Below are positions 1,776 to 46,033 of a stretch of DNA of 64,000 nucleotides, in pieces. The stretch covers positions 13,531 to 77,530 of the forward strand of contig JBGTMQ010000015.1 of assembly GCA_041743505.1 (NCBI GenBank), written 5' to 3'. This DNA is from Candidatus Saccharimonadia bacterium. Lineage in GTDB: Bacteria; Patescibacteriota; Saccharimonadia; UBA4664. The translations under genes were made by a program, and so were the position numbers. The notes beneath the pieces are model-generated. The model made no database searches, had not been told where the DNA came from, and was given only the letters and a program-made list of their open reading frames with translations. Every line of letters starts with the position of its first letter. Position 1 is the first letter of the stretch.

Positions 1776-2194
1776 GCATTTTTTTTAGGGTCAAAGAAAA
1801 CATATTTTTTTCGGAACCAGAAGTTCCAGAAAAACGTCACACAAATCGCTATCAACTTGCCAATCAATGGTGCGCCTTTAACCACTTCCACCACGAAGGC
1901 AGTCACGGCCACCTGCAGGGCCAGCCCGATAACGCTCGCCACCACTACCAGCAAGAATTCCTTGTGCGCTGAGTGCGGACGGTGCTTAAACACAAACACC
2001 CGGCTCAGGTACCAGTTCAAAATAATCGCTATCACCATACTGACGGGCGTTGCGATCAGATATGAAATGCCACCCCAGATCATTGCCTGGAAAATAACAA
2101 TCTCTGAGCCTACCAATAAAATAGCAATACTAAGATAGCGCCAAAGCTCAGGCGTGAGACGGGCGGTGAATAAGGAGAAAAATTTCTTAAGCAT
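1772..2194 (-). CDS. GtrA-family polysaccharide biosynthesis membrane protein
   Basis: 140 aa, 4 TM helices, typical GtrA-like layout and conserved basic C-terminus. Converges on and overlaps the stop of the previous gene. Confidence 0.8.
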   Translation of the reverse strand: MLKKFFSLFTARLTPELWRYLSIAILLVGSEIVIFQAMIWGGISYLIATPVSMVIAIILNWYLSRVFVFKHRPHSAHKEFLLVVVASVIGLALQVAVTAFVVEVVKGAPLIGKLIAICVTFFWNFWFRKKYVFFDPKKNA

Positions 2195-2340
2195 ATAAGC
2201 GAGTATAAAGCTACAATTCTAAAAGTACCTAACAGCTGGCGTCATTGACATCTTGTCAGCCAATAATTACGCTCAAACGGAGCCAAGCTAATAAAAGGCT
2301 CCAGATACAAATTACTACCACTCTCCAGGAGGACACTCGC

Positions 2341-2715
2341 ATGCCACTGGTAACCGTTAACTATGATACGGCCAAAGTATCCGAAACCGTTATGGATCAG
2401 GTGGTAAAAATCCTGGTCGAAGGTTTAGCCAAAGCCCTTACCTCCTCCAATGACCAAGATGGCAAAGTTGTGCCAAAAGGCGTCAGAGTCTTCGTCAATG
2501 AACGAAGCCTTCTTGATTATTCAGCCTGGGACATCGACATCACAGTCATGACCAATGACCTTCCAGGGCGGCACAACCTCCAAGAACGGCTGTCACCCGT
2601 AAGTCAGTCGCTCCAGAGTCTCCTTGAGGAACAAGCTCCCGGAGTCACGCACTGCCTTTGGGCCAATCTGCATGGCCCCTTTGCCTTCTTCGATCCCACC
2701 GAAAGATTGTCATAG
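2341..2715 (+). CDS. Hypothetical protein, possibly tautomerase-superfamily-like (Met-Pro-Leu N-terminus)
   Basis: Start chosen at ATG 2341, preceded by AGGAGG SD (the ORF track started at 2245). MPLVTVNY N-terminus resembles Pro-1 tautomerases (MSAD/cis-CaaD); weak. Confidence 0.4.
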   Translation: MPLVTVNYDTAKVSETVMDQVVKILVEGLAKALTSSNDQDGKVVPKGVRVFVNERSLLDYSAWDIDITVMTNDLPGRHNLQERLSPVSQSLQSLLEEQAPGVTHCLWANLHGPFAFFDPTERLS

Positions 2716-2760
2716 GCTCGCGGTGCACCGGTGGTCGTAACGGTCACCGCCTAGTGAACA

Positions 2761-2794
2761 TTGACATAAAGTGAGATTTTTGTTATAATCTCAC
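2761..2794 (+). promoter_or_regulatory. Consensus sigma70-type promoter TTGACA-17-TATAAT with an 8-bp inverted repeat (GTGAGATT-N8-AATCTCAC) spanning the spacer and -10: candidate operator
   Basis: TTGACA at 2761-2766, TATAAT at 2784-2789, IR arms at 2771-2778 and 2787-2794. Sits upstream of the GTG-initiated DUF218 gene, which has a GAGAGGA SD. Confidence 0.55.
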
Positions 2795-2831
2795 AGTTTA
2801 GTACCTTCCCGCTCTACAGAGAGGATGCGTT

Positions 2832-3473
2832 GTGGACGCGTCAGATTTGGAGCTTTACCGCTGTATGTTCCGATATGTCTCATCGGACGTGGCACAGCCG
2901 CAGGATCAGTTCAAGACCACCAATGCGGCTTTCGTCTTCGGACGCCAAGACCGGCTGGTCGCTGAAGCAGCCGCACCACTGTGGCACAACGGCCGGGTCG
3001 AGCGAGTCTTGATCACCGGCGGCATCGGCAAAGACTCCGGCAACTTGTCCGCCGAGGCTGGCGACAGCGAAGCCGGTTGGCTCGCCGATCAGATGGTGTT
3101 GCTCGGGGTAAGCCGCGAGCACATCATCGTTGAGCCCAGGGCTTCCAACGGCGGCGAGAACTGCCGCTTCGGTCTCGATACCCTCGCAGCCGCCATTGGG
3201 CAGTTCGGATCTCTCATCGTGGTCGCCCACGCCACCTCGCTGCGCCGCCTGGGCGCCATGCTGTACGATGAGCTGAACCACCGCAACCTGAGTGTCACAC
3301 TCCAGCTCGTTCCCAGCGCCTACCGGTTTGACCCCGAGAATGCCACCGACCGCGACGAGGTGGTAGCCGAAATCAAGCGGCTCCACGAATGGCCACACAA
3401 GATCGGCGGCGATGGCCGGCCGTTCCTGTCCCCCCAGCCACCCGTTCCGGCTCAGTTCCTGCGCTTTCTGTAA
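2832..3473 (+). CDS. DUF218/YdcF(ElyC/SanA)-like protein
   Basis: 213 aa, GTG start, Rossmann-like DUF218 core (VLITGGIG, ...IVEPRASNGGEN). The antisense ORF 2880-3542 is rejected as a shadow ORF. Confidence 0.6.
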   Translation: MDASDLELYRCMFRYVSSDVAQPQDQFKTTNAAFVFGRQDRLVAEAAAPLWHNGRVERVLITGGIGKDSGNLSAEAGDSEAGWLADQMVLLGVSREHIIVEPRASNGGENCRFGLDTLAAAIGQFGSLIVVAHATSLRRLGAMLYDELNHRNLSVTLQLVPSAYRFDPENATDRDEVVAEIKRLHEWPHKIGGDGRPFLSPQPPVPAQFLRFL

Positions 3474-3498
3474 GCAGTCCCAACCGTTAACCCAACAG

Positions 3499-3540
3499 GC
3501 CCGGCGAGTCGTTCGACTCCGCCGGGCCCTATTTCGTCTC
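3499..3540 (+). terminator. GC-rich hairpin terminator between convergent genes
   Basis: ggcccggcgagtc / gactccgccgggcc stem followed by ctatttcgtctc. Confidence 0.45.
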
Positions 3541-3556
3541 ATGCTACTTAAAGAGC

Positions 3557-4309
3557 TTAACTCGGCTCAACAGTGTGCCCGACGTACTCCTCCAGCTCCT
3601 CAGGAGTGCCAAACGAGTGGAATTCATCAACCGGCGCGGTCAACACTTTACCACCATCTCTCAGGATGATGTTGTACACAAATGAAATATAGTACTCCTT
3701 CATCACATCCGACAGCGGCTGCTTCAGGAGCTCCTCGGTGCCCTTAGCAAACGTCTCGGCCTTAGCAAAAAAATAAGCTCCCCAGATAGCATTATTAGAA
3801 ATAACCTGCTTCTCAGCTGTCCGGATCACGTATCCGTCCTCATCAGTCTCGGCGTAACTGTAGCGGGGGTTGTCGGAGTTAAACGTCAACAGACCGGCCG
3901 CAATATCGCTCTGTCCGGATAAGACATCCGTAGCCATTTTATTGTAACCCTCGCTCGAAAACCAAAAATCACAGTCCATAATAACCACCGGATCTCCCGG
4001 TGTTAGCTGCGAATAGGCCATCAGGGCGGTTTCGGCTGCCCCACGGGTCAACTCGGGAATAATCACCACGTTAGCCACCGGCAGCGCATCCGTTATCAGC
4101 TTATCGAGCTCATAAGCGTCCACGTGCTCCTGACGAATCACAAATGTAAACGTCTTGTCGGCCTCAATGTGGTCAAAGCTACTAATAGCCTTCAAAAACA
4201 TCGCCTGACCGTCAATCGGAATTAATGGCTTAGGAGTAGTGAATCCGGCTTTAGTAAATCGTGAACCAAGTCCGCCCATGGGCATAAGGATTTGAAGTTT
4301 CTTTGACAT
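3557..4309 (-). CDS. Sugar-phosphate or head-group nucleotidyltransferase (NTP_transferase / LicC-like)
   Basis: N-terminal MPMGGLGSRF nucleotide-binding motif, 250 aa. Confidence 0.75.
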   Translation of the reverse strand: MSKKLQILMPMGGLGSRFTKAGFTTPKPLIPIDGQAMFLKAISSFDHIEADKTFTFVIRQEHVDAYELDKLITDALPVANVVIIPELTRGAAETALMAYSQLTPGDPVVIMDCDFWFSSEGYNKMATDVLSGQSDIAAGLLTFNSDNPRYSYAETDEDGYVIRTAEKQVISNNAIWGAYFFAKAETFAKGTEELLKQPLSDVMKEYYISFVYNIILRDGGKVLTAPVDEFHSFGTPEELEEYVGHTVEPS

Positions 4310-4312: not shown

Positions 4313-5086
4313 TTAAGTCGCCTTTGTTGAAGTATATTGTTCTGGTGTGCGCGTGGGATAGCTTAACAGGCCAAACCGCCATTTGAGTAGCTGTAACCCG
4401 GCCGTCTTCCCGATTTTAAAGTTACGGGCGTTGCTGACTTGGTCTTCCTCGCTCCAGGTAATAGGCAGGTAAACCAGCTTTGCGTGCTTAGTGTAGAACC
4501 CAAGCAGAAGGTCAAAGTTAAAGGTCAAAGCGTCCGCGTATCCCAGATAGGCGTGGTCAGACAAGGCACTGAGTTTAAACAGGTTCAAGCCAGAGCCAAG
4601 GTCACGTACCCGTTGGCCAATGAGCACGGTGTAGAAAATATTCAGCGCCTGATTGCCCAAAATCCGCTTCTGGTCATACCCAACCAGCTTGGAGCCTTCC
4701 ATAAACCGCGTACCCAAAAACGCATCAACCGTTGGGTCCTTCTCGGCCGCATCAAGCAAATTATTCAACTCACTGGTCTCAGCCTGGTCATCACCATGTA
4801 AAATGGCCACATAATCCATACCCAGCCGTTCTCCGGACAAAAAAGCCACTTTATGAGTCCCGCCGAGGTTATAATTGGCATCATTACGCCAAACCTCAAC
4901 CTTAGGACTATTCAACTGCTTAGCAGCAGCCTGAGCAGCCTCAACTGTACCGTCTTTGCTGCCGTTATCTATAACGACAACTTTCTCCACCCGGTCCAAT
5001 AATGCCTTATCAAAACCGGCGAGCACCCGGCCAATCTGCTTTGCGCAATTATACGCGGGAATAGCAACCAGCACTTTCATATCCAT
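4313..5086 (-). CDS. Family 2 glycosyltransferase
   Basis: VAIPAYNCAKQI...VVIDNGSKDGT, HGDD motif; 257 aa. Tandem with the nucleotidyltransferase. Confidence 0.8.
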   Translation of the reverse strand: MDMKVLVAIPAYNCAKQIGRVLAGFDKALLDRVEKVVVIDNGSKDGTVEAAQAAAKQLNSPKVEVWRNDANYNLGGTHKVAFLSGERLGMDYVAILHGDDQAETSELNNLLDAAEKDPTVDAFLGTRFMEGSKLVGYDQKRILGNQALNIFYTVLIGQRVRDLGSGLNLFKLSALSDHAYLGYADALTFNFDLLLGFYTKHAKLVYLPITWSEEDQVSNARNFKIGKTAGLQLLKWRFGLLSYPTRTPEQYTSTKAT

Positions 5087-5117
5087 CTCCTTTGCTCACA
5101 TCTTAATATAACCCCTT

Positions 5118-5154
5118 GCAAAGCAAAAGCCCGCTCCCTTCTCAGGGAGCGGGC
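5118..5154 (-). terminator. Intrinsic terminator for the IMPase gene
   Basis: 11-bp stem gcccgctccct/agggagcgggc, followed on the minus strand by TTTTGCTTTGC. Confidence 0.6.
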
Positions 5155-5179
5155 ATTCGGCAAACTGGCGCCGGTTATC

Positions 5180-6124
5180 TCAGACAAAACTGTTCATGAT
5201 CATCCTATGGAGCCAGTCAAGCGACTCTGGGCTATTCGCCGTCAGGAGCATGTCATAGCTATGCGTGTCCAGAGGATCACACCGGCGAAGCGTCCGGTCC
5301 GGGTTGACGTGTAGTCCAACAGCCGCACCGCCTGCCCGGATCACGTGCAGCGCCGCCGCACAGTCAAACGAACCACCCATGGCCGCCGTCAGCGAGCCTA
5401 CGATCCCCTTGGGGCTGTTGCGCTGCTGCATACCATCGGCCACCAGCGACTGGTGCAGGCCATTCGAAGCCAGGCTGTTGATGCCGATCCGGCCCTGTAG
5501 GGCTTCGAACAGCCGGTTCAGTCCCTCGCGCGACCAAACATCCTTGGTGCCGCCATGAGCGCTAAACGGCCGTAGCAGGTCAATCAGGAAAACGCCCTTC
5601 GAAGGGTCGATTTTGCCATTCCAAACCTGGCATGGCCGGGTCAGTAGCGGCGAATCGCCGAGCCTAGGCCCGAAAGCCAGGAGCTCGCAACCGACGTCGT
5701 CTGCCACCCGGATCTTGCCGGTCAGCGGATCACCCGTTACCGCACAAACCACCCGGTTCACCTTGCGGTCGTACAGGACCAGAATTACCACCGAACCCGG
5801 CGCGCCGATACCAAGTAGCAACGTGCCGTCGACTGGGTCAAGCTCAGCCATGAACCGCGCATTCGGATCAATTCGCGTCCAACCACCCTCCTCGCGGAGG
5901 ATTGGCAGGTCGCCGAGATGTCGGCGCAGCACACCTGTAGCCGCTGCTTCACTCTCCCGGTCAACGACCGTCACCAATGTCTGGTCGGCCTCCTTGATCT
6001 CCGAATTATCGATCGTCCGCAGCCCACATTGGTATGGCTGCATCACCCTCATCGAGGCCAGGGCCGCTTCAATTGCGGCCGACCTAAACTCCCGGATCAT
6101 CAGAGCTCCAATTGCCAGGTACAT
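5180..6124 (-). CDS. Inositol-monophosphatase-family phosphatase (IMPase/CysQ/HisN-like)
   Basis: ELDPVDGT and WDCAAALHVIRAGG motifs; 314 aa. Confidence 0.7.
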   Translation of the reverse strand: MYLAIGALMIREFRSAAIEAALASMRVMQPYQCGLRTIDNSEIKEADQTLVTVVDRESEAAATGVLRRHLGDLPILREEGGWTRIDPNARFMAELDPVDGTLLLGIGAPGSVVILVLYDRKVNRVVCAVTGDPLTGKIRVADDVGCELLAFGPRLGDSPLLTRPCQVWNGKIDPSKGVFLIDLLRPFSAHGGTKDVWSREGLNRLFEALQGRIGINSLASNGLHQSLVADGMQQRNSPKGIVGSLTAAMGGSFDCAAALHVIRAGGAAVGLHVNPDRTLRRCDPLDTHSYDMLLTANSPESLDWLHRMIMNSFV

Positions 6125-6227
6125 CAGAATAAGACCAATAAAATATACACGAAGATATCAAAAATGCCAAGGCGTTAAAGAAGCCCACCTCTCTCAGAGG
6201 CGGGCCCAATCAGCCGATAGGTCAAAG

Positions 6228-7088
6228 CTAAACAGCGTATGCTAGCGCCGTAGTTAGCTCCTCAAGTGCCGCCCTACTTTTGGCCACAATCATCAGATCG
6301 TGCTTAAGCACGTCGAGCGGGTCGTGCTCGGTCAGGCGGCCGTCTTTGTCCATCGCAAAGCCACAGGCGGCGCCACCGGCTTCGAGAACAAGCAATACCC
6401 CGCCACAATCCCAGGCACCACCTACGGCGGTCGTTACCGCCCCTGCCACATCGGGGCTTCCGTTGGCGACCAGTGCGTGGTGTAAGCCATTAGAGCCATA
6501 GCTCTTTATACTCGCCTGGGTATGCAACTGGCAAAAGAGCCTGGCATAGTTATCATCGGTCAGGATAGTGCGCCCATTGCGAGTGAAAGCACTGAAACGG
6601 TCAATCATCAGAGTGCTAGACGGCCGCATATCGCCGTCCCAGACCCGGCATGACTGCTCAGTTTGTCCAATAGTCAATGTGCAGCCATGTCCGCGAACCG
6701 CACTCCAGATACGGCCGGTAGCGGGTGCGGCTATAACTACCGCCACCACCTGGCAGAATTCCCGGTCATAGAGGGAGGCAATAATGGTACTAGTGGCAGC
6801 TCCAGCTACCAGTGACCTTGTGCCGTCCACCGGGTCAATCAATATAACGTAGCGGCCATCATGACCGGCCAGTAAACCGGCCTCTTCCCGCAAAATCGGG
6901 ACGTCCGGAAATTCCTCCCGCAGATGCTCAGTGATGATCCTCTCCGACTCACTGTCAACAGGGGTTAGCAACGAGCCGTCATCTTTTATTACAACCCGGC
7001 CTCTCCAGACATCGTGTTGATGAGCTACCACCATTCTGGAGGCCAGCTTAAGAGCACCTCCAGCTATCGCCACAAACCTTTGCTCCAC
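6228..7088 (-). CDS. Inositol-monophosphatase-family phosphatase, paralog of the adjacent gene
   Basis: ILIDPVDGT and AWDCGGVLLVLEAGGA motifs; 286 aa. Confidence 0.75.
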   Translation of the reverse strand: MEQRFVAIAGGALKLASRMVVAHQHDVWRGRVVIKDDGSLLTPVDSESERIITEHLREEFPDVPILREEAGLLAGHDGRYVILIDPVDGTRSLVAGAATSTIIASLYDREFCQVVAVVIAAPATGRIWSAVRGHGCTLTIGQTEQSCRVWDGDMRPSSTLMIDRFSAFTRNGRTILTDDNYARLFCQLHTQASIKSYGSNGLHHALVANGSPDVAGAVTTAVGGAWDCGGVLLVLEAGGAACGFAMDKDGRLTEHDPLDVLKHDLMIVAKSRAALEELTTALAYAV

Positions 7089-7182
7089 AGTGCGCTCCCT
7101 TGCGTCGGAGTTTGAGGTGTCAAATCGCTACCTGCGTATTTGAGCATAAAAAACGAATAAAAGCGAATAGTCGTGCCTGGAG

Positions 7183-7671
7183 TTAATTCCAGCCTCGATG
7201 CGGTTCGGCCCGTATCTGCTCGGTTTCGTTACCCCGGGCATAATCGTCTGCCAAACGCCAAGTAGTACCTGACTCAGGTGTGGATGATTCAAAAATATCG
7301 CAGTCAGTTATACCAATCAGCCGGTGCCTCTGCCCAAGCCTGGTAGTATAGCCGGTACCTGGTTGCAGCTCGACCTGAACCAGCTCACCATCCTTATTCT
7401 CAATCAACAGAGCACCCCGCCCGCGCAATATGGTGTATGTCTCGGTCTTGCCGTCGTGGATCTGCATGCTCTGGCGGCAGCCCGCGTTTATGTGCATGAT
7501 CTTGGACATATAGAACCAGCCTTCAGGCACAAGCAGAAGCTCATAGCCCCAGGGCTTGTTCACCCGGGTCTGGTGGCCGTCAATGCTAAACTTTGAGCTA
7601 TCAATGCCAGCCAAAAATTTTTTGAGATCTGAATCTGATGTTTTAGTGTCTGACATTATGGGAACCTCCAC
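7183..7671 (-). CDS. Cupin-domain protein (type II mannose-6-phosphate isomerase-like cupin)
   Basis: KPWGYELLL...MQIHDGKTETYTILRG cupin motifs; 162 aa. Not convincingly RmlC. Confidence 0.55.
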   Translation of the reverse strand: MEVPIMSDTKTSDSDLKKFLAGIDSSKFSIDGHQTRVNKPWGYELLLVPEGWFYMSKIMHINAGCRQSMQIHDGKTETYTILRGRGALLIENKDGELVQVELQPGTGYTTRLGQRHRLIGITDCDIFESSTPESGTTWRLADDYARGNETEQIRAEPHRGWN

Positions 7672-7726: not shown

Positions 7727-9466
7727 CTAGTAAACCGGATTGTACCCGCCACCGTATGCCCGGCTGTTGCCACGGTAGAAGTCGCTTACCTTCTGTGGTT
7801 GCCCGCCATCAACCGACACCACGTACAAGGCATTCTCGCCCGACTTAGTAGAGCTAAATACTATGTACTTATTGCTATACCACTGCACAAACTGGTTCAC
7901 CGAGCCAAGGTTGGTCAACCGGCGCTCGTTATCGCCATCGTGATCCGTCACGTAGAGCTCGGAGCGCCCGTCACGCTCGTCCACAAACACCGCTAGCTTC
8001 TCGTTCAATGATTCATTGTACGCCCGGTTTGAGATCGTGCTGGGGCCGCTATCTAGCTTGCTAACCACCAGGTTGCCCAGGTTAAGATTCTGCCACACCT
8101 GTGGCTTAGGCAGGTTGTGATTATAATAAACCAGCTGAATCGTTTCCTTGGCTTTCCGCGACACCTGCGAAGCCGGCGTCTCACTCATCCGTCGCTTACC
8201 GGCCCCGTCAGCCTTAATCGCGTACAGGCCGTCGCTATCAGAGTTCGTGCCACTCACCGAGTACAACACCACGTCATCGTAAACCGTATTGATAGTGGGG
8301 CAGACTGCTCCCGAGCCCGCAGCCACCGTCGATCCCCGCGCCCCGGCCACATAGTAAGCCTTGATACTATTGCAGCTCTGCGCATTCGGCTTCTGATAAA
8401 CCAAATAATCCTTGACCCAAGTTCGGTAATTCCCAAACTCAAACCCGTCCTCAACTTTGGTCAGCTTCTTGGTATCACCATTGAATATAAACAAGTCCTG
8501 AATCGGGTTGCCGTACTTATCCCGCCGGCCCTCCCGGCTCGATACAATGGCCACTAAGTCGGGCTGCTCAATACTGGGCAAAATACCGGTCTGCTCATCT
8601 TCCTTGCCGGTGCCGGCCAAAACTACCTGTGACTCCGTCCCATCCAGTCGGCTGGAATACATATCAATCCGGCCGCTGCGGTTAGACAAAAAGTAAACAT
8701 TACCGCTCGGCACCAACGCGACCTTATATGGCTTGGCGGTATCCTTAACCTCGATATCCACCGTCGCGTCGTGGTAGCCTTCTTTTGCCAACTTAGCCTT
8801 GACCCTCAAATCACCCCCCGGCAATAGAGCCAGCCGCAACTGACCGCCCTTACTCACCGCCTGACTGTCACCCGCCTCAACCGTCGCATCATCCAGCTTC
8901 TTGCCGCTGATCTTGTCCGTCACTTCAAAGCTAATATTAATCCCAGCGCTCACCAAACTAACCGGCTCAAACTTCGGCCGCCCAATCGGCACCAGCACCT
9001 GTTGAGTACTCGTCTTGTAAGCCTTCTTCGAAATAGTCAGGGTGCTTTTGCCCAGCTTTAGCCCGTTAAACTCGGCCGTACCGTGGTTATCCGTCGTCGT
9101 GCTTTGACCGGCCAGGGATACCGCAGCATTCGACAGCGGCTGCTTCGTCACCGAATCAATCACCTTTATATCGGCGCTGTTTTTATACACCAAGCCCACC
9201 ACCGGATACCGCAAACCAGTAGCCGCGATCACGCCGGTTACCAGCACCAATAGCCCAACTCCAATAGCAATCGTCTTGCCCTTGGTCGTACCCAACCAGG
9301 ACTTAAACCGTTCCCATCGCCCGCTTTTCACCTCACCATCAGACTCATCGGCCTCTTCCGCCTTCGCATCAGCCACTGTTTCCGGCTCAACTTCAGCTAC
9401 CTTCTCAGGCTCCGCCGCTACCGCATCTTGATCATCAGACGTCTGGGACTCTTCTTGGTTCTTCAT
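7727..9466 (-). CDS. Membrane-anchored surface protein with PD40/TolB-like beta-propeller repeats
   Basis: Acidic N-terminus, one TM helix, carboxypeptidase-regulatory-like region, C-terminal repeats (RSELYVTDHDGDNERRLTNLG; GENALYVVSVDGGQPQKVS). Confidence 0.55.
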   Translation of the reverse strand: MKNQEESQTSDDQDAVAAEPEKVAEVEPETVADAKAEEADESDGEVKSGRWERFKSWLGTTKGKTIAIGVGLLVLVTGVIAATGLRYPVVGLVYKNSADIKVIDSVTKQPLSNAAVSLAGQSTTTDNHGTAEFNGLKLGKSTLTISKKAYKTSTQQVLVPIGRPKFEPVSLVSAGINISFEVTDKISGKKLDDATVEAGDSQAVSKGGQLRLALLPGGDLRVKAKLAKEGYHDATVDIEVKDTAKPYKVALVPSGNVYFLSNRSGRIDMYSSRLDGTESQVVLAGTGKEDEQTGILPSIEQPDLVAIVSSREGRRDKYGNPIQDLFIFNGDTKKLTKVEDGFEFGNYRTWVKDYLVYQKPNAQSCNSIKAYYVAGARGSTVAAGSGAVCPTINTVYDDVVLYSVSGTNSDSDGLYAIKADGAGKRRMSETPASQVSRKAKETIQLVYYNHNLPKPQVWQNLNLGNLVVSKLDSGPSTISNRAYNESLNEKLAVFVDERDGRSELYVTDHDGDNERRLTNLGSVNQFVQWYSNKYIVFSSTKSGENALYVVSVDGGQPQKVSDFYRGNSRAYGGGYNPVY

Positions 9467-10992: not shown

Positions 10993-11844
10993 CTACTCCT
11001 TAGTTGATCTGAGTTTGAGGTACTCTTTCAAATCATCTCGCCAGTCCCGCACCCTCAAGCCAGTAGCCTTGATCTTAGACAGGTCCATCGTGCTTTGCAA
11101 CGGACGGGGAGCCGCCTCAGGCTTCTTCTTAAAGTACTCCTCGGTAGTAGTCCCCGTCACTGTCAGGTCATCCCGGCCGATATTGGTAAGAATCGTTTGG
11201 GTAACCTCGGCCCATGACGCCGGCTCTCCATCGTTCGTCAGGTTGTAGAGACCGTACGGCGCCCCGATTTTCAAGAGGTGCTCGATCCCATCCACCAATT
11301 GTCCGGTAAACGTCAGCCGCCCGATCTGGTCGTCCACTACTGATGGCGAAATATTCTTAGCGGCCACGCCCACCATGGTCCGCACAAAATTCGGCCCATC
11401 ACCAATCAGCCACGTGCCGCGCAAGTTGTAATGCTTGGGCACAATACTAGCAGCAAAGTCACCAGCCGCTTTACTTTGCCCATACACGCCCAGCGGCGTC
11501 ACCGGCTCATCTTCTGTGTGGAGCGCCTGCCGGCCGTCAAAAACGTAATCGGTGGATCCTTGCACCAGCGTGAGATCATGCTTGATTGCGATCCTGGTCA
11601 GCCAGGAGACTGCTTGAGCGTTGATCTTCCATGCTTGTTCCCGGCCTTCAGCGGTCTGAGCGCCATCTACATTCGTATAGGCGGAGGCATTCAGAATCGT
11701 GTCGATCTGACCCCAGTCAAAGGCCTCTAACACCACCAAATCTGTGACATCAAGCTGCTCACGGGTATAAGCCAACGAATCAGGAAACCGCTTCCGCAAC
11801 GCCCTTCCAAGCTGCCCATTGGCGCCCAATATCAAAGCCTTCAT
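10993..11844 (-). CDS. rmlD: dTDP-4-dehydrorhamnose reductase
   Basis: MKALILGANGQLGRAL...RmlD-like throughout, 283 aa. Confidence 0.85.
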   Translation of the reverse strand: MKALILGANGQLGRALRKRFPDSLAYTREQLDVTDLVVLEAFDWGQIDTILNASAYTNVDGAQTAEGREQAWKINAQAVSWLTRIAIKHDLTLVQGSTDYVFDGRQALHTEDEPVTPLGVYGQSKAAGDFAASIVPKHYNLRGTWLIGDGPNFVRTMVGVAAKNISPSVVDDQIGRLTFTGQLVDGIEHLLKIGAPYGLYNLTNDGEPASWAEVTQTILTNIGRDDLTVTGTTTEEYFKKKPEAAPRPLQSTMDLSKIKATGLRVRDWRDDLKEYLKLRSTKE

Positions 11845-11874
11845 CGCGTTACCTCCATCGGCTTGAGATGCTTA

Positions 11875-12831
11875 TTAAGCGCGAGTGGTCTCCGAGTAGA
11901 GTGACTCGTATACCTTATTCAGGACAGTCCGTTGACGCGAGGCCTCGGCTGTCTTCTCAAGCTCCCGGCGCAAGGTATCCTTGTCCGTGGCCTTGATATT
12001 CTCACCCAACTCTTTCACGATCTCGCGCAACCGCTCTTCGTAGGGCTTTACCTTAATCCCGAGCGCCTCAAACTTTGTCACATCCAGCACCGTATCCACG
12101 CGAGTGTTCGGTGTCATCTTATCAAGCTCAGCCTTAGCGATCTTCTCTGGCTCCAGATCTGGCAGGATGAATTCTTTGATCATCAGGCCAATCTGGTAAG
12201 GAGTAGTGTAACCGGCGTTAGAGACATGGTAAATACCGGTCGCGTCCCTAGCGATCAGCTCATCCGTCCAACCCATCAAATCCTCAATAACTGTACCCGA
12301 GTTAGCCGTATCAACAAACTTCGAGAACGTTAACATCTTCACCAGCATATTCTTGCTGTTAACCCGGGCTGATACAGGCTGACGCGGCCGCAAAATCAAA
12401 TACTTAAAGTCGGCCGAGCGCTCAAATGTAACCATTTCCTCGCTCCAGACCTTGGTCCACCCATAATAAGACGATGGGTTCGGAATGGATTCCTCGGTCT
12501 TAGCGTCCTTGCCGTCAACACTCGAGAAGATACAGCCGCTGGAGTAATGAACAAAGTAAACCTTACGCTGGTCACAGACCTTGGCTATAACACCAGCCCC
12601 GAGCACGTTGGCATTAAATGCCTCAAGCCGATTGTTACCACACCATTCAAGGTTTGTCTTAGCAGCCGTGTTTATCACTACGTCTGGCGCAAATTCCTCC
12701 ACCGCTTCATCAACCTGCTCAAAATCAGTAATGTCAGAACCAGCGGCTATTTTAGCTTCGACATCAGTGTTTTTATAGTGGTCAAGGTAAAAATTGGCGA
12801 TCTGACCGTTACCGAAAATTAAGATCTTCAT
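11875..12831 (-). CDS. SDR-family sugar-nucleotide reductase/epimerase (RmlD-like paralog) with a coiled-coil C-terminal extension
   Basis: Start placed at MKILIFGNG (ATG 12831, AGGAG SD). YGWTK catalytic motif. Confidence 0.6.
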   Translation of the reverse strand: MKILIFGNGQIANFYLDHYKNTDVEAKIAAGSDITDFEQVDEAVEEFAPDVVINTAAKTNLEWCGNNRLEAFNANVLGAGVIAKVCDQRKVYFVHYSSGCIFSSVDGKDAKTEESIPNPSSYYGWTKVWSEEMVTFERSADFKYLILRPRQPVSARVNSKNMLVKMLTFSKFVDTANSGTVIEDLMGWTDELIARDATGIYHVSNAGYTTPYQIGLMIKEFILPDLEPEKIAKAELDKMTPNTRVDTVLDVTKFEALGIKVKPYEERLREIVKELGENIKATDKDTLRRELEKTAEASRQRTVLNKVYESLYSETTRA

Positions 12832-16817: not shown

Positions 16818-18605
16818 ATGGCTCAATCCGAAGAGCAGTTTGATGACACCCAAGAAACGTCTCCGGTAGACCTGCTCCGGTGGCCTTGGTATTGGCGTTG
16901 GTCAGGTGGCCTGGTACTGTTGGCCCTACTACTTTATGGCAGTTTCCAGTTTGCCTACGCTGGCAAAGTCTTCCCCGGCGTCAGCGCTGCCGGCGCCGAT
17001 CTGGGCGGCTCTACCAAGGCTCAAGCCACCGAGAAGCTAGCCTCACATGTCAGGGATTTCTCCATTCACACGCTTTCTATCAAATACAACGACACATCTC
17101 TCAACATGCCCATCCGAAACCTGGAGACCGAATACGACACCGGTAAAGCCGTCGACCTCGCCTATAATTATGGCCGTCAAGGTGGTTTGTTGCGGCGGCT
17201 GCACGAGCAATTACGGGCCTTAGTCGGCCGGCCCACCAACTTTGCCGCCTACTCCTACAGCGATGAGCAACTAGCCTCATATCTGGGACAGATCGAAGAC
17301 GACGTTGTAACGCCGGTCCGCGATGCCAGCCTGACTTTCAACGACAACCACGCCCAAGTATCACCGGCCAAAGCCGGCAACCGGCTGGACCGGGCCCGGC
17401 TGGTCGCACTCATCGAAGATCATCTGGCCCGCGCCGACACCGAGTCCATAACCGCGCCGGTCTACCAATTGAAGCCGGTAGTAGATACCGCCGTGCTCGA
17501 TCGCGCGGCCGGTCAAGCCGATCAGTACATCTCGGCGCCGGTCACGCTAGCCAATGACAACGAGCCCATCAAGGCCATCGACCAGCCCACTATCATTAGC
17601 TGGCTCAAAACCAAGCACCAAACCGGCGGCGAGTTCCTGGACACCCTCGACCTTAAGGACATCTATCCAGGCGCCACCGTGGCCAGCTTCTCGCTCGACA
17701 AATCGGCCGTGACAGCCTACGTGGCCAGCCTGGCCCGCCAAACCGACCAGAAGCCCAAAAATGCCGCACTTTCAATGAAAGATAACCAGCTTGCCGTCAC
17801 TGCACCCAGCCGCGACGGCGTCACCCTCGACCAGCCCAGCGCGGTTGACAGCATCCTGAGGGCACTATCCAAACCCGCCGACGACCGCAGCGTCCCGCTG
17901 GATATCCAGACCGTCAAGGCCGACGTCAACGAAACCAACCTCGACAGCCTCGGTATCAAGGAGCAGATCTCTCAAGGCCAAACATTCTTCCCGGGCTCAC
18001 CCTCCACCCGCATGACCAATGTCCGGACGGGCGCCGCCAGGTTCAACGGTATATTACTCAAGCCCGACGAGGTCTTCTCGTTTGGCGGCTTGCTGGGTGA
18101 AGTAAATGCTTCCACAGGGTATGTGCCCGAGCTGGTAATCCTGGCTGATCACGAAGAAAAACAGTACGGCGGAGGCTTGTGCCAGGTTTCATCCACCGCC
18201 TTCCGGGCGGCCCTCTTGGCCGGCTTGCCCATCTTGCAGCGCAGCAATCATGCCTTTGCCATTAACTATTACACTGCGCCGTTTGGCGTTCCCGGTGTGG
18301 ATGCCACCATTTACTACCCACAAGTCGATTTTAAGTTCAAAAACGATACCGGCCACTACATCTTGATGCAAACTACCATGCAGGGCACTACACTCAAATT
18401 CGACTTTTTCGGCACCAAAACCAAGACCGGCACCATTCGCGGACCTGAGTTTGTTACCGGCAATAGTGATCATACCAAGCCGTCCCACACTGTCTTTTAC
18501 CGGGACATCCTGGACCCAGAAGGCAAGGTTCACAAGACCGACACCTTCCACACTCGCTACAAGTCTAGCCTCGATTATCCCATCGAAACCACCGGCTACA
18601 ACTAA
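16818..18605 (+). CDS. VanW-family protein (N-terminal TM, G5/PG-binding-like region, VanW domain)
   Basis: GGGLCQVSSTAFRAALLAGLPI VanW signature, 595 aa. Confidence 0.8.
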   Translation: MAQSEEQFDDTQETSPVDLLRWPWYWRWSGGLVLLALLLYGSFQFAYAGKVFPGVSAAGADLGGSTKAQATEKLASHVRDFSIHTLSIKYNDTSLNMPIRNLETEYDTGKAVDLAYNYGRQGGLLRRLHEQLRALVGRPTNFAAYSYSDEQLASYLGQIEDDVVTPVRDASLTFNDNHAQVSPAKAGNRLDRARLVALIEDHLARADTESITAPVYQLKPVVDTAVLDRAAGQADQYISAPVTLANDNEPIKAIDQPTIISWLKTKHQTGGEFLDTLDLKDIYPGATVASFSLDKSAVTAYVASLARQTDQKPKNAALSMKDNQLAVTAPSRDGVTLDQPSAVDSILRALSKPADDRSVPLDIQTVKADVNETNLDSLGIKEQISQGQTFFPGSPSTRMTNVRTGAARFNGILLKPDEVFSFGGLLGEVNASTGYVPELVILADHEEKQYGGGLCQVSSTAFRAALLAGLPILQRSNHAFAINYYTAPFGVPGVDATIYYPQVDFKFKNDTGHYILMQTTMQGTTLKFDFFGTKTKTGTIRGPEFVTGNSDHTKPSHTVFYRDILDPEGKVHKTDTFHTRYKSSLDYPIETTGYN

Positions 18606-18701
18606 AATCCGGGCAGACAAGCCACCGGCAAATTGACACGCCGACTGCTTTCCGGATAAACTCCTAGAGCTTCTGTGTACCTTGAATATAGAGGAGTGTC
18701 T

Positions 18702-20129
18702 ATGATGCCCTACAGACAGTCCCTGGTCGGCAGCGAGTCCGAATTTGGCTTGTCGGTCCGTAAGGGCGACTACGATGACACACTGCGCCTATTAGCGAAT
18801 CTTCTGACCACGACCGTGCCTATATTGCCCGACAGTATAGTCGCCGGGAAGCGGCGCTGGTACCGTGCCGGTAGTGGTATGTATGTTGATCTCGGCGGCC
18901 ATTTTGAATTCACGAGCGCCGAATGTGCCAATCCGGCTCAGCTAGCCGCTCACGAGTGGTCTGGACCTTTTCTGATGCGCTGCCTGTACAATGCGGCCAT
19001 TCAGCAACATACACTCCCGGCCGACATTTGGCTGTTCAAAAACAACACCGACAAAACCGACGTCATTACGTATGGCAACCATCTGAACCTTTTGATGCCC
19101 CAGATGTGGAATCCCGAAGACGATATTTGCAGCTTTGCTTCCGTCGCTATGGCAATGGTGGTAACGTTACCACTCCTCACCGGAGCCGGGACAGTGTTTA
19201 ACCTCGATGAGCAGCAGCCGGCTTTTCTGGGGGGTAAAGATTACGCTTACCGGATCAGCGCCCGCAGTGAGTTTATGTGTAAAGAAATTGGCAATGACTC
19301 AACTCGCCAGCGGGCTATATTTCTCAACCGGAACGACCATCATGTTGGCAACAACCCGTACTGGCGGCTCCAGATCCTTTCACTCGACGCCAATATCTTG
19401 CCCATACCCATCGGCATCAAAGCCGGCCTGCTGGCAAACCTAGTGATGATGTGGGCGTCCGGCGAGATCGAGCCATTAACGCTGCTTGACCCGGTCGCGG
19501 CACTGCGCCAAGTCAGTCTTGACTGGCGAGTCCCGCTGGAGGTCAAAAGCCACCGCTCCATGACCGCCGTACAAATACAGCAGTACTACTTGTCTCAAAT
19601 CGAGCAATTTGTCATCCGGCATCATTTGTGGTCCTTCATGGTCACAATCAACGAAGCCAAGCGGCAATTAGCGGCTTTTGCAGCCACCGGGGGCGTACCT
19701 GAACAACTCTTTGGGTCTAACGATTGGGTGACTAAATGGATGTACCTGCAACGCCAAGCTGCCAAAGGCAAGAAAGGCTACTGGCGGGCCGCCGAAGTCA
19801 ATCTCAAGTACCACGGCTTGCCGCTTGACAGCCGCTTTCACACCAGCATACCTATGATGCTATTACGGCGGTTTGGCGGTCCCTGCTTCCTCCAGCAGGC
19901 CCAGCTCGCTACCTGGGTGCCGCCTACCGGCTCAAGAGCTATCGTACGGGGCGCTTTCATCGATACGCTACTGGCCCACCCACCTAAAATACCCAGGCCC
20001 GTCGCTATCGACTGGGCCACCGCCCGGTACAACGGCTACCACCTTAATCTGAGCGATCCGTTCTCCACCAACACTCGGTGGCTGAACAAGCTTGCTCAAC
20101 TGCTAGCATCCGATAAACACAGAGCCTAG
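18702..20129 (+). CDS. Pup-ligase/deamidase-family protein (PafA/Dop-like carboxylate-amine ligase homolog)
   Basis: GSESEFG, YVDLGGHFEFTSAEC, IWLFKNNTDKTDVITYGNHLNLL and C-terminal DW..Y.L.LSDPF align with PafA motifs. Start at ATG 18702 after GAGGAG SD. Own promoter TTGACA-17-ATAAAC. Confidence 0.75.
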   Translation: MMPYRQSLVGSESEFGLSVRKGDYDDTLRLLANLLTTTVPILPDSIVAGKRRWYRAGSGMYVDLGGHFEFTSAECANPAQLAAHEWSGPFLMRCLYNAAIQQHTLPADIWLFKNNTDKTDVITYGNHLNLLMPQMWNPEDDICSFASVAMAMVVTLPLLTGAGTVFNLDEQQPAFLGGKDYAYRISARSEFMCKEIGNDSTRQRAIFLNRNDHHVGNNPYWRLQILSLDANILPIPIGIKAGLLANLVMMWASGEIEPLTLLDPVAALRQVSLDWRVPLEVKSHRSMTAVQIQQYYLSQIEQFVIRHHLWSFMVTINEAKRQLAAFAATGGVPEQLFGSNDWVTKWMYLQRQAAKGKKGYWRAAEVNLKYHGLPLDSRFHTSIPMMLLRRFGGPCFLQQAQLATWVPPTGSRAIVRGAFIDTLLAHPPKIPRPVAIDWATARYNGYHLNLSDPFSTNTRWLNKLAQLLASDKHRA

Positions 20130-20172
20130 CAGCCCGAGGCCTCCGGTATGACCGGGGGCCTCATTAACATCT

Positions 20173-20201
20173 TGACACTTCGGGTTTTGTTCGGTAACAT
20201 G
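20173..20201 (+). promoter_or_regulatory. lexA promoter TTGACA-17-TAACAT; region GTTCGGTAACATGAAAAC overlaps the -10 (possible LexA operator, unresolved)
   Basis: Hexamers at 20173-20178 and 20196-20201. Confidence 0.45.
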
Positions 20202-20232: not shown

Positions 20233-20853
20233 ATGGCCGAACCATTAACCAAACGTCAGAAAGAGGTGTTAGACTACGTCACGCAGTTCATTGAGCTGCA
20301 TGGGTACGCACCGAGCTACCGCGAGATCGCTTCGCACTTTCATTACGGTTCAGTAGCAACGGTTGCCGAGCACATTGAGTCTCTCGTAGCTAAAGGTATG
20401 CTCCAAAAAGGCGACAACGAAGCCCGGTCCATTCAGCTCGTCCGCGCCGACAACATTGATGTCACCCCTAGCATCGGCCTGCCCATCCTGGGCCTCGTAG
20501 CTGCCGGCCAGCCGATCGAGACACTTGGCACCCACGCCGAGACCCTCGAGGTACCGCCCTTCATGGTTGGGCGCCGCAACTCCTACGTCCTGCAGGTCAA
20601 AGGCCAGTCCATGATCGATGAGGGCATCAACGATGGCGACTATGTCGTGGTGCAAGAAAAAGACGTGCCATCAAACGGTGAGATGGTCATCGCCCTCATC
20701 AACGGCGGTGAAGCAACGCTCAAGCGCTACTTCAAGGAAAAAGGCCACATCCGCCTCCAACCCTCCAACGCCGCCATGGAGCCTATCATCATCAAGCCGG
20801 GTACGCCTATCGAAATTCAAGGCACTGTAATCGGCCTCATCCGGAAGTACTAG
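20233..20853 (+). CDS. lexA: LexA repressor
   Basis: N-terminal wHTH, AAGQP cleavage-site region, S24 peptidase Ser (GQSM) and Lys (LKRY). Confidence 0.9.
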   Translation: MAEPLTKRQKEVLDYVTQFIELHGYAPSYREIASHFHYGSVATVAEHIESLVAKGMLQKGDNEARSIQLVRADNIDVTPSIGLPILGLVAAGQPIETLGTHAETLEVPPFMVGRRNSYVLQVKGQSMIDEGINDGDYVVVQEKDVPSNGEMVIALINGGEATLKRYFKEKGHIRLQPSNAAMEPIIIKPGTPIEIQGTVIGLIRKY

Positions 20854-20855: not shown

Positions 20856-21059
20856 ATGAACGAACCCATAATGTTCGACTGCCGGTTATATGTCTCAACG
20901 CTAGGACCAATCCGCCCGGTCCTTACACAAGAAACTGGCCCATATAAATCCATTGAGTTTGCTCCCATTGAGTACAACAAACTAGTAGATCCGAGTTTCC
21001 GCCAGTTAATCGAAGCCTTCGAAACATTGCCGCAACCCCTCCAAATTGTGCAGGTCTAA
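20856..21059 (+). CDS. Small hypothetical protein co-transcribed with lexA
   Basis: ATG 2 nt after the lexA stop; 67 aa; no recognizable domain. Confidence 0.4.
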   Translation: MNEPIMFDCRLYVSTLGPIRPVLTQETGPYKSIEFAPIEYNKLVDPSFRQLIEAFETLPQPLQIVQV

Positions 21060-44706: not shown

Positions 44707-45189
44707 GTGAGTACTCTTGATGATCTGAAGGCCAGAATCAACCATAACGGCCGGGCTACAACTGCACCGACAACCCAGGCGCCGCCCATGAAGTACTGCC
44801 GCCCACTGTCCGGACGCAGCGATGTCTGGCTCATGCCCTGTCACGAGCAGCCGGCCTGCTCCCCCGACGAGGTCAGCCGGGCTATCACAACCAAGCGCGG
44901 CGCCTCGGTGCTCGTGGTCTGTGCAGCCGGCAGTCATTGGGCCGCAGGACTTAACCGGGCGGCCAAGGATTCCCCGGGCCTTGCGCTGCACACCGTTCAC
45001 GCCGCCGGTCAGCCGGCAAACGACGGCGCCATCACCGTCACCGAGGACCAGATTCGCCGAGCCACCCAGGTCAGCCAGACCTCCGGTATCTCGCCAGGAC
45101 GCACCAATGCAATGCTCGTTGCGGCCCTCCTGGGACCTCTGGAGACCCTCACCTGGCAGCGCACGTCCATCGTGCTCATCCTCGGGTAA
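44707..45189 (+). CDS. Hypothetical protein regulated by the attenuator
   Basis: GTG start with GGAGG SD 6 nt upstream; strong C bias at codon third positions supports this frame. The overlapping frames (44822-45211, 44656-45000) are P/S/R-rich shadows. Confidence 0.45.
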   Translation: MSTLDDLKARINHNGRATTAPTTQAPPMKYCRPLSGRSDVWLMPCHEQPACSPDEVSRAITTKRGASVLVVCAAGSHWAAGLNRAAKDSPGLALHTVHAAGQPANDGAITVTEDQIRRATQVSQTSGISPGRTNAMLVAALLGPLETLTWQRTSIVLILG

Positions 45190-45218
45190 GGATCACGCCT
45201 TGGCAGCATAAATCACAC

Positions 45219-45266
45219 CGGCCGGCTAATAGGAGACGCCTCTTGTTAGCCGGCCGTTTTACGTTT
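45219..45266. terminator. Bidirectional terminator hairpin
   Basis: cggccggctaa...ttagccggccg 11-bp stem, then TTTTACGTTT. Confidence 0.55.
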
Positions 45267-45462
45267 CGGGCGTTTCGGGAGCCTTTTTCTTACCAAACCG
45301 GTCTTTAATAGGCTGGATCAGCCGCTTTGCCCAATGGTACTCCCGGCCCAGTACTGCCAGTCCGGCTAAGATCAGTAATATTCCGGGGCCCGGCAACACC
45401 AATAGCAAAATGCCGGCAATAATCAGCAAGAAACCCAGAATAGTGGTCAGAATCTTCTTCAT
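45259..45462 (-). CDS. PGPGW-motif small transmembrane protein
   Basis: LLLVLPGPGILLILAGLAVLG. Confidence 0.7.
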   Translation of the reverse strand: MKKILTTILGFLLIIAGILLLVLPGPGILLILAGLAVLGREYHWAKRLIQPIKDRFGKKKAPETPET

Positions 45463-45505
45463 GTAGTAACTTTACACCCTTTGCTATACCGGCTACGATT
45501 CAGAT

Positions 45506-46033
45506 ATGCTAAAGAAACTTCTCATTGCCGCCACCTTACTGCTGACGGCCAGCGGCTTTGTCTTGGCTCATCGTAGCAACCAGGAGGCGGGGAAGCAAGC
45601 AAAAGCTATTTTGGCTGCCGATGTGTCCTCTCAGAACGTTACGCCCCTACTGAATACCTTGCAGGGCTTTGTCGCCGCCCATATGGGCTCCGGCGCCACT
45701 ATCACACTCACGGGCTCGCACGACCGGGCGATGGCGGCGGCAAAGGCTGCCGCTCAGGCCCAAAGCGCCAATTCACAGATTTACGCTCAGGCACAAGCCG
45801 CCTGCGGCGGCAAAAACGATTCTGTCTCAGCCGCCAAGTGCAACCAGGACTTCCTAGCCAAGCACTTGGTCAATGTACCGGTACCCGCTCCGGTGGTTGA
45901 GCCCAAGCTAGCCGATTATCAGCACCAATTCCGGGCGCCCCCATGGACCCCCGACCTGGCTGGAGCATTGTTCTTGGGAGCGGCCGGAGCGCTGGCTATC
46001 TTATTGTTGAGCTTGATTAAGCGGAGGTCATGA
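45506..46033 (+). CDS. Hypothetical secreted protein with C-terminal TM anchor
   Basis: Signal peptide; Ala/Gln-rich; 175 aa. Confidence 0.5.
   Translation: MLKKLLIAATLLLTASGFVLAHRSNQEAGKQAKAILAADVSSQNVTPLLNTLQGFVAAHMGSGATITLTGSHDRAMAAAKAAAQAQSANSQIYAQAQAACGGKNDSVSAAKCNQDFLAKHLVNVPVPAPVVEPKLADYQHQFRAPPWTPDLAGALFLGAAGALAILLLSLIKRRS

Follow-up and report, generated by a model that had tools for sequence, protein, structure and literature searches.

A Pup ligase-family gene without a recognisable Pup at the variable VanW-lexA junction of Saccharimonadia

Gene organization at the locus

The stretch of DNA analysed here (referred to as the window) comprises 64 kilobases (kb) of contig JBGTMQ010000015.1 of a Candidatus Saccharimonadia bacterium (assembly GCA_041743505.1), and its gene content fits this lineage without proving it. 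At 18702-20129 on the forward strand we confirmed an open reading frame (ORF) for a protein of 475 amino acids (aa) that belongs to the family of the pupylation enzymes PafA and Dop. The gene, termed Pup_ligase-like in the following, is assigned to a Saccharimonadia clade with HxN and RLQ signatures on the basis of Pfam family PF03136, an AlphaFold2 (AF2) model compared by Foldseek, and clade alignments. It is flanked upstream by a gene encoding a VanW/PG_binding_4 protein (16818-18605, forward strand, Pfam) and downstream by lexA (20233-20853, forward strand; LexA_DNA_bind and Peptidase_S24 in Pfam), the product of which is 86-94% identical across the lineage. Both flanks are backbone genes; the VanW gene is outside the unit and is kept beside lexA in relatives lacking the Pup_ligase-like gene. 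An ORF of 67 aa (20856-21059, forward strand) is translationally coupled to lexA and starts 2 nucleotides after its stop codon.

Translation of the Pup_ligase-like gene starts at the ATG at 18702, which agrees with the N-termini of homologs and is also the start of an identical protein (P0001) on record in two independent assemblies with the same neighbours (L001, L002). The gene is preceded by a sigma-70-type promoter of its own, TTGACA-18-TAAACT (18633-18662, forward strand, 10/12 match in a promoter scan), and by the Shine-Dalgarno sequence GAGGAG, read from the sequence 5 nucleotides 5' of the ATG (18691-18696, forward strand). An initial annotation of this DNA had put the promoter at the same site but read it as TTGACA-17-ATAAAC. 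Promoter and Shine-Dalgarno sequence are conserved across the homologous loci, with an ATTGACA -35 box at the same place in eight of them. Between -10 box and Shine-Dalgarno sequence a leader box, G[CT]AC[CT]TCGACA, is conserved in L003, L004, L005, L006 and L091; the copy in the window (18663-18690) is degenerate and reads GTACCTTGAATA.

Just 3' of the stop codon, at 20136-20162 on the forward strand, lies a 12-bp GC-rich hairpin without a T-tract (dG -25 kcal/mol, z = -3.06), and hairpins of this kind are found at the equivalent site in L006, L088, L089 and L090. A consensus terminator scan did not call it as a terminator; we regard it as a terminator-like or insulating element between the Pup_ligase-like gene and the lexA promoter (TTGACA-17-TAACAT, 20172-20200, forward strand, promoter scan). 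The latter promoter, the GAGGAG sequence and the spacing of 2 nucleotides between lexA and the 67-aa ORF were found as initially annotated, and the short gap in front of lexA was confirmed too, though it measures 103 instead of 104 nucleotides from the Pup_ligase-like stop codon. The sequence motifs given in the initial annotation are all present in the 475-aa protein: GSESEFG at residues 10-16, YVDLGGHFEFTSAEC at residues 61-75, FKNNTD...YGNHLNL at residues 112-130 and the C-terminal DW...LSDPF.

Family assignment and predicted fold

The protein matched the Pfam family Pup_ligase (PF03136) over residues 52-440 with 181.8 bits at a gathering cutoff of 25 (E 3e-53). Its scores against the equivalog models of PafA (TIGR03686, 157.1 bits) and Dop (TIGR03688, 108.4 bits) were below the respective cutoffs of 551.3 and 492.3. 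An AF2 model built from 80 sequences reached a predicted local distance difference test (pLDDT) value of 93.8 and a predicted template modelling score (pTM) of 0.93. Foldseek superposed this model over its full length on the PafA-Pup structure 4bjr (template modelling score, TM, 0.82) and on Dop (5lrt, TM 0.80), and the protein is therefore predicted to have both domains of the PafA/Dop architecture, the C-terminal one being unique to pupylation enzymes. The next-best folds, YbdK/GCS2 (1tt4, 1r8g), reached a TM of only 0.46-0.47, and there was no match of the protein to Pfam GCS2, which rules out a placement with these non-Pup ligases, a possibility considered in the initial annotation.

Judged by sequence and modelled fold, the protein is thus a member of the PF03136 family in which every defining motif tested is found, and its initial description as the product of a stand-alone PafA/Dop-family gene holds. 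To go by the same scores and residues, it is neither a PafA nor a Dop equivalog, because both cutoffs are missed, the residues discriminating the two enzymes are mixed, the Dop loop is absent and no Pup gene is adjacent. A known anti-phage defence system was ruled out, as PADLOC models matched neither the 475-aa protein nor the paralogs at locus L100 described below.

Catalytic residues and clade-specific replacements

The motifs of the family are GhExE, acidic residues on strands 2 and 3, [HQ]x[NH], [QH]x4D and two arginine fingers (PMC2588565). In addition, we mapped published residues onto the protein, i.e. the Mg ligands E8, E10, Y92, E99, H155 and H241 of Dop, its catalytic D94, R227 and R90 (PMC8599861), R201 of PafA and the adenine/ribose contacts R418 and W440 (PMC12053664), as well as the positions by which Hecht et al. 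2020 discriminate PafA from Dop (PMC7947786).

GhExE on strand 1 is represented by G10-S-E12-S-E14, and both glutamates are invariant in 80/80 aligned family members. The YxD...E residues of strands 2 and 3 are Y61, D63 and E69 and correspond to Y92, D94 and E99 of Dop. On strand 4, H127-L128-N129 satisfies [HQ]x[NH], and on strand 6, Q224-ILSL-D229 satisfies [QH]x4D; the arginine fingers R204/R210 and R222 are conserved. The adenine/ribose contacts correspond to R412 and W438, which are invariant. E12, E14, Y61, D63, E69, H127, R204, R210, R222, R412 and W438 are thus the conserved ones among the mapped published residues, and together with N129, Q224 and D229 they form the core residues of the protein. 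Overall, of 61 columns with at least 90% conservation among 63 canonical PafA/Dop sequences, the protein keeps 42.

The initial annotation had stressed that the HENY motif reads HLNL in this protein. The canonical HEN is present in 63/67 sampled family representatives from outside the clade, and within the clade the aligned site is H-[LIMVT]-N in 12/13 aligned members and Q-V-N in P0075. The site aligned with RLH is RLQ in 10/13 members, with Q at the third position in 11/13. The exchange of HEN for HLN is therefore real and clade-wide, but it was overstated as a change of the active site: the glutamate is the undefined x of [HQ]x[NH] (PMC2588565), and its replacement (E128 to L/I/V) covaries throughout the clade with R156 to L. 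This covariation suggests that a buried salt bridge on the convex face of the sheet was swapped for two hydrophobic residues, and the change from HEN to HLN is very probably structural.

E14 and D63 are 49 residues apart, compared to 46 in canonical PafA and 63-86 in sequences bearing a Dop loop. Hence there is no Dop loop, an element of about 40 residues in front of strand 2, and the PafA-like spacing noted initially was reproduced. The protein is PafA-like as well in D-L-G-G-H, inserted behind the catalytic Asp, and in having Gly at position 11 and R at position 32. V62 and the alpha-loop residues F/E/G/D are Dop-like, and neither PafA- nor Dop-like are the positions A37 (L here), F41 (T) and S50/S51 (G/K).

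A distinct clade with a fast-evolving surface

An exhaustive phmmer search over 1.84 billion representatives gave 1421 family matches, nine of which reached E<=1e-30. With a profile of the clade, members scored 624-665 bits and the best canonical PafA 246 bits; a homolog search with this profile, limited by its word index, added no new members. In a neighbour-joining (NJ) tree of 84 sequences the clade (the window protein, P0068-P0075, P0002, P0076, P0078, P0097 and one L089 paralog) was monophyletic in 60/60 bootstrap replicates (100%) and fell neither within canonical PafA nor within the Dop-loop group. Among species-representative genomes it is encoded only by metagenome-assembled genomes (MAGs) named Candidatus Saccharimonadales and Candidatus Saccharimonadia. 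The clade is thus distinct and has so far been seen only in Candidatus Saccharimonadia (TM7). One deep member, P0076 (L161, 91-1602, forward strand), adjoins ruvC (1690-2172, reverse strand) on a short contig on which a VanW/lexA context is not visible.

In the window, the Pup_ligase-like gene has a native composition, with a GC content at third codon positions (GC3) of 0.655 and a codon-usage divergence among the lowest of all genes. It is therefore a long-term resident of the genome and not a recent import. A recent horizontal transfer from an actinobacterial host was ruled out on these grounds and by the deep branch outside canonical PafA and Dop.

Comparison with the loci of relatives revealed large differences in conservation within the cassette. 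Identity to the window was 86-89% for LexA, 70-77% for glmS, 55-60% for VanW, 33-56% for the small ORF and 30-39% for the Pup_ligase-like protein. The latter is thus far ahead of the rest of the cassette in rate of evolution, exceeding its neighbours two- to threefold. Its surface evolves rapidly while the catalytic core stays invariant: 43 columns, including the catalytic and nucleotide-contact residues, are invariant within the clade, the members of which are otherwise 28-44% identical. This argues that catalysis is under purifying selection.

An accessory gene at a variable junction

In all clade loci with a visible flank (L003, L006, L007, L009, L088, L089, L090, L091-L094 and L162; the short contig of L005 shows the VanW side only) the Pup_ligase-like gene lies between the VanW/PG_binding_4 gene and lexA, followed by the small ORF. 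Depending on the locus, there is no Pup_ligase paralog at the junction, or there are 1 or 2 that belong to two deep subfamilies; in some loci, insertion sequences (IS), ImmA/IrrE or antitoxin genes are found there instead. Two copies occur in L162 and in L089, where they are a recent tandem duplicate (69% identical). In L003 there is a divergent second Pup_ligase ORF (11553-12716, forward strand) that had not been called, an HVN variant which NJ places in the second TM7 subfamily; it runs into a masked stretch of N, and the source annotation calls an antisense ORF of 137 aa there.

The second Saccharimonadia subfamily is located at the same junction and includes P0100, with canonical HENY and RLH, as well as L163, L164 and L100. 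The L100 locus carries, between VanW and lexA, a translationally coupled, divergent pair (1017-2399 and 2400-3851, forward strand) with 30% mutual identity, one member with HENY and the other with HRNY, and without a Pup ORF. This may be a ligase/hydrolase-like pair. The shared address of two deep subfamilies suggests an old duplication in situ followed by differential loss rather than repeated insertion.

We gathered 70 LexA loci from metagenomes and compared those with at least 83% LexA identity. In eight of these (L095, L096, L097, L099, L102, L105, L112, L139) VanW directly abuts lexA without a Pup_ligase gene, five (L091-L094, L100) contain such a gene, and five have other genes at the junction. 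The latter are IS1595-type transposases (L098, L104, L126), ImmA/IrrE metallopeptidases beside lexA (Peptidase_M78; PADLOC CapP, E 9.5e-29; L103, L104), a SocA/Panacea antitoxin (L098) and a weak PadR-like ORF (L106). The mobile and accessory genes lie at 3392-3928 (reverse strand) in L103, 4027-4560 (forward) and 4868-5785 (reverse) in L104, 1649-2503 (forward) in L126, and 1088-1624 (forward) and 2235-2840 (reverse) in L098. The Pup_ligase-like gene is an accessory gene at this variable VanW-lexA junction.

Frequent loss in close relatives, together with the fastest evolution in the cassette, might be taken as signs of a decaying relic or pseudoenzyme whose partners were lost in a reduced genome, the more so as the equivalents of Dop R90 and H241 are gone and deeper clade members also lose H67. 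We consider decay highly improbable, since clade ORFs of 460-504 aa are intact in more than 15 lineages despite their low mutual identity, with invariant catalytic and nucleotide-contact residues, tandem duplicates are kept (L089, L162), the fold is predicted with very high confidence, and promoter and Shine-Dalgarno sequence are conserved.

Relation to lexA and the SOS response

The region 5' of lexA is almost identical in nine loci and consists of TTGACA, then CTTCGG-N5-TGTTCGG, then TAACAT. Embedded in the lexA promoter is a candidate LexA operator, CTTCGGGTTTTGTTCGG (20178-20194, forward strand), conserved in these nine loci. It is a direct repeat ([CG]TTC-N7-GTTC), not a palindrome, located between the -35 and -10 boxes, and is reminiscent of the GTTC-N7-GTTC boxes of Alphaproteobacteria. 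LexA may bind this motif. Scanning the window with CTTCGGNNTTTGTTCGG detected one exact copy, at lexA, and none 5' of the Pup_ligase-like gene. The remaining matches at up to 3 mismatches were at chance level, none of them 5' of this gene.

The 67-aa protein has a conserved core and a variable C-terminus. Relatives of 57-74 aa are coupled to lexA (gap 0-20 nucleotides) throughout this Saccharimonadia lineage, and a small ORF follows lexA in most loci with a visible downstream flank, with or without a Pup_ligase gene. Copies are found at 13487-13687 in L003, 12179-12367 in L006, 6732-6935 in L088, 5683-5907 in L089, 12214-12402 in L090 and 2809-3000 in L164, and in most of L091-L105. They share the motif F[DE]CxxYV..G....LP.E.GP.[RK]....P..Y..L[IV]DP.FRRLLAAFE, and many end in VQV. 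There was no match to Pfam, NCBIfam or PADLOC, and a model from two sequences reached a pLDDT of 59.5. The small ORF may be an uncharacterised component of the SOS module. It was rejected as an analogue of Pup: its C-terminus varies (VQV, TGS, LTA and LPA among others), without a single G[EQ], and the ORF stays with lexA in relatives that have no Pup_ligase gene.

The initial annotation had suggested a tie of the Pup_ligase-like gene to the DNA-damage response. As a modifier of LexA, RecA or the 67-aa protein, the enzyme would parallel the actinobacterial pafA-pafBC arrangement. Wherever the gene occurs, it is immediately upstream of lexA, in two deeply diverged subfamilies, and one clade member adjoins ruvC. 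ImmA/IrrE peptidases cleave repressors after DNA damage, and genes of this type are sometimes found at the same junction in relatives. However, the gene has a separate promoter and is set off by the hairpin, and the conserved lexA operator is absent upstream of it. At least eight relatives, in which VanW abuts lexA, lack the gene and retain lexA and the small ORF fully intact, at 83-94% conservation. In addition, a C-terminal Glu or Gln is not a conserved feature of the small ORF. An SOS-linked function is therefore very unlikely, and the suggested tie could not be upheld. The pattern of presence and absence, the gene's own promoter and hairpin, and the outcome of the operator scan together ruled out membership in a LexA operon or regulon. 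The Pup_ligase-like gene is outside the SOS circuit, and its adjacency to lexA is inherited synteny at a variable junction, because it has its own expression signals, lacks the operator and is missing in relatives, and because the small ORF is tied to lexA.

Search for Pup and its partners

Among stop-to-stop peptides of at least 25 aa in all six frames of the window, none ended in GGQ or GGE. Searches by phmmer with two Pup sequences found no Pup-like peptide in the window or in about 30 related Saccharimonadia loci, and none of the about 20 Pup_ligase genes in these loci is adjoined by a Pup-like ORF, Pup being a protein of 50-90 aa with a C-terminal G[EQ]. The two query sequences were validated against the real Pup of locus L165. 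This canonical locus served as a positive control, in which a 63-aa ORF ending in ...FVQKGGQ lies directly upstream of a PafA/Dop homolog. Pfam detected no proteasome or AAA Mpa/ARC gene among essentially all window ORFs of at least 120 aa, and no mpa/arc, prcB/prcA or pafBC gene in the window or the flanks of 12 homologous loci. The absence of GGQ/GGE-ending ORFs and of proteasome and arc genes from the window, as initially stated, was thus borne out.

The control locus L165 is MT835496.1, a 159-kb scaffold from human faeces deposited as "UNVERIFIED: Bacteriophage sp."; the Pup gene is at 5808-5999, the homolog at 6004-7407, and a second family match lies elsewhere on the scaffold. The scaffold is a piece of an actinobacterial chromosome or else a phage with pupylation genes. 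Carriage of the TM7 clade by phages or plasmids was rejected, as MT835496.1 has canonical Pup beside a homolog that does not belong to this clade, and the matches in plasmid collections were actinobacterial records, one of them 11.85 Mb long, without a member of the clade.

A split canonical system is one way to account for these results: Pup or a UBact-like tag, possibly together with Dop, Mpa and the proteasome, would be encoded at another locus, and the protein described here would be its divergent ligase. This is consistent with the full PafA-type architecture without Dop loop, with the higher score of the PafA compared to the Dop model (157 vs 108 bits) and with the fact that 64 kb of the genome were covered. 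However, the pup gene adjoins the PafA-family gene in every lineage analysed by Iyer et al. (PMC2588565), whereas none of the about 20 genes considered here has such a neighbour and the annotated stretches contain no proteasome or AAA unfoldase gene. Furthermore, the equivalog score is far below the cutoff, and presence and absence among close relatives would be unexpected for the sole ligase of a proteostasis pathway. We regard a split system as unlikely.

Pup is used mainly by Actinobacteria, and these are the usual hosts on which Saccharibacteria live as epibionts. The enzyme might accordingly be directed at Pup or pupylated proteins of the host. It might attach the tag, take it off or recycle it, either on imported host material or once delivered into the host. 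The assignment of the lineage to Saccharimonadia, the retention of the Pup-type fold and C-terminal domain without a Pup encoded in cis, and the combination of an accessory hotspot gene with a fast surface and a conserved core, a pattern typical of genes in conflicts between organisms, would fit such a role. It is opposed by the lack of a signal peptide or secretion-associated neighbour (the N-terminus runs directly into the GhExE strand) and by the age and native composition of the clade, which is not a recent acquisition from hosts. The MAGs stem from soil and rhizosphere. An action across organisms seems hardly more than a slim prospect.

As a third possibility, the enzyme may have gone back to the usual chemistry of carboxylate-amine ligases and form gamma-glutamyl-type amides, with a metabolite or a peptidoglycan-related compound as substrate and a functional link to VanW and glmS. 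The order VanW, Pup_ligase gene is shared by 14 loci, many of which have glmS or rml genes upstream, and by the same logic of a missing Pup-like ORF Iyer et al. assigned other Pup-less ligase families to peptide or metabolite synthesis (PMC2588565). On the other hand, VanW and glmS persist unchanged in relatives without the gene, and the PafA/Dop-specific C-terminal domain is retained along with non-catalytic family motifs (DWVTK, YH, PPxTRA, DPF). Moreover, the fold is far nearer to PafA/Dop than to GCS2/YbdK, and rapid surface evolution would be unusual in a metabolic enzyme. We consider this reversion doubtful.

A possible function of the enzyme

We favour, with a probability of roughly 45%, an accessory, lineage-specific and catalytically competent enzyme of PafA/Dop type that acts on a partner other than a canonical Pup encoded in cis. 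As to its chemistry and substrate, we infer that it would bind ATP-Mg like PafA and Dop, and would phosphorylate a peptide or protein held in the groove beside the beta-sheet cradle, at the side-chain carboxylate (or amide) of its terminal Glu or Gln. The acyl group would then either be passed to an amine, as by the ligase PafA, or be hydrolysed, as by the amidase Dop. The partner would be a peptide or protein, probably as lineage-specific and fast-evolving as the surface of the enzyme. Both options named in the initial annotation, a split or atypical pupylation system and a ligase acting on a different substrate, are still the appropriate ones.

Several points weigh against an active enzyme with such a partner. 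Dop R90, a contact to the alpha-phosphate, is replaced by G59, a position variable within the clade, and the Mg ligand H241 by Gln (Q224); with two published nucleotide and metal contacts changed, activity could be altered or weak. The residues discriminating PafA from Dop (PMC7947786, Table 1) are mixed in the protein, and its chemistry may be that of a ligase, an amidase or another enzyme. The contact between L128 and L156 is putative, as is the state of the Pup groove. Repeated loss of the gene in close relatives means that it is dispensable, and, as 64 kb of the genome are visible, a pup gene may be located elsewhere.

Going further, Saccharimonadia may possess a private, diversifying set of Pup-less PafA/Dop-like enzymes that hijack or edit actinobacterial Pup tags of the host, or that conjugate a new, unrecognised modifier, although we think this improbable at present.

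Other genes in the window

Outside the junction, a SAM (S-adenosylmethionine) riboswitch (RF00162, 53.4 bits; 60525-60632, forward strand) directly precedes metK (60671-61819, forward strand). An F-type ATP synthase operon extends from 44707 to 53625 on the forward strand. Its alpha, gamma and beta subunits are clear and a delta/OSCP match is under threshold; the upstream ORFs are divergent, five of them without a Pfam match, including 45506-46638 and 48000-49432. Four NUDIX hydrolase genes are located on the reverse strand of the window, which is part of a reduced genome (10448-10990, 13918-14433, 41898-42470 and 42482-42991), two of them beside rml dTDP-sugar genes. A Tricorn_N/CarboxypepD_reg protein of 579 aa is encoded at 7727-9466.

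Significance and comparison with known systems

Pupylation enzymes have been regarded as inseparable from Pup. Here, a well-supported and apparently active subfamily occurs in genome-reduced episymbionts, and the loci examined show no Pup. Should the enzyme work with a new tag or with the Pup of a host, ubiquitin-like signalling would extend to the candidate phyla radiation (CPR), or a new mode of interference between symbiont and host would exist. Editing of host Pup tags would amount to an inter-bacterial manipulation of a ubiquitin-like system, and a new modifier to a new protein-tagging system of CPR bacteria, whereas a return to small molecules would make the enzyme a naturally occurring example of how function can be reversed within the PafA/Dop fold. 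CPR genes of this kind should not be annotated as 'Pup-protein ligase' or 'proteasome accessory factor A'. In full-text literature searches we found no paper linking Saccharibacteria or Patescibacteria to pupylation.

The protein resembles PafA of Corynebacterium glutamicum (4B0T/4BJR) in its full-length alignment (residues 7-466, E 6e-29; TM 0.82), the missing Dop loop, the DxGxH insertion after the catalytic Asp and the presence of all carboxylate-amine ligase motifs. R201 of PafA, which contacts the C-terminal carboxylate of Pup, has its counterpart in R204, and the C-terminal domain with the adenine/ribose contacts is shared, too. However, identity is only 23-29%, the score is 157 bits at an equivalog cutoff of 551, and 19 of the 61 canonically conserved positions differ, E128L, Y130L, R156L, H224Q and G228L being replaced clade-wide. 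The PafA-specific residues A37, F41, S50, S51 and F54 near the Pup groove are not kept, and a context of Pup, pafBC or proteasome genes is lacking.

With Dop of Acidothermus cellulolyticus (4B0R/5LRT/7OY3) the protein shares the fold (TM 0.80), the catalytic Asp, five of six Mg ligands and R227, as well as F, E, G and an acidic residue in the alpha-loop at Hecht positions 25, 28, 29 and 31. It differs from Dop in the absence of the Dop loop, a match limited to residues 57-419, a score of 108 bits at a cutoff of 492, and the replacement of H241 by Gln and of R90 by Gly. GCS2/YbdK ligases have the superfamily core in common with it (GhExE, beta-sheet cradle), but are distant in fold (TM 0.46-0.47) and without the C-terminal PafA/Dop domain.

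Pupylation without a proteasome is known from Corynebacterium and Bifidobacterium. Plesiocystis and Rhodopirellula are further cases (PMC2588565). PafA-family enzymes can thus work without a proteasome, but in these organisms Pup, usually with Dop and ARC, is still encoded beside the enzyme.

The protein also resembles the single-copy homologs outside Actinobacteria and Nitrospirae (Planctomycetes outgroup, PMC7947786), which are likewise about 30% identical to PafA and Dop, branch outside both and occur sporadically. In those lineages, however, Pup is reported to adjoin the enzyme gene (PMC2588565), whereas it does not in the loci of the Saccharimonadia clade, which in addition is marked by the H-hydrophobic-N, RLQ and L156 signature and by its fixed address between VanW and lexA. 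This Pup-less PafA/Dop subfamily, restricted so far to Saccharimonadia, is new within a known enzyme family.

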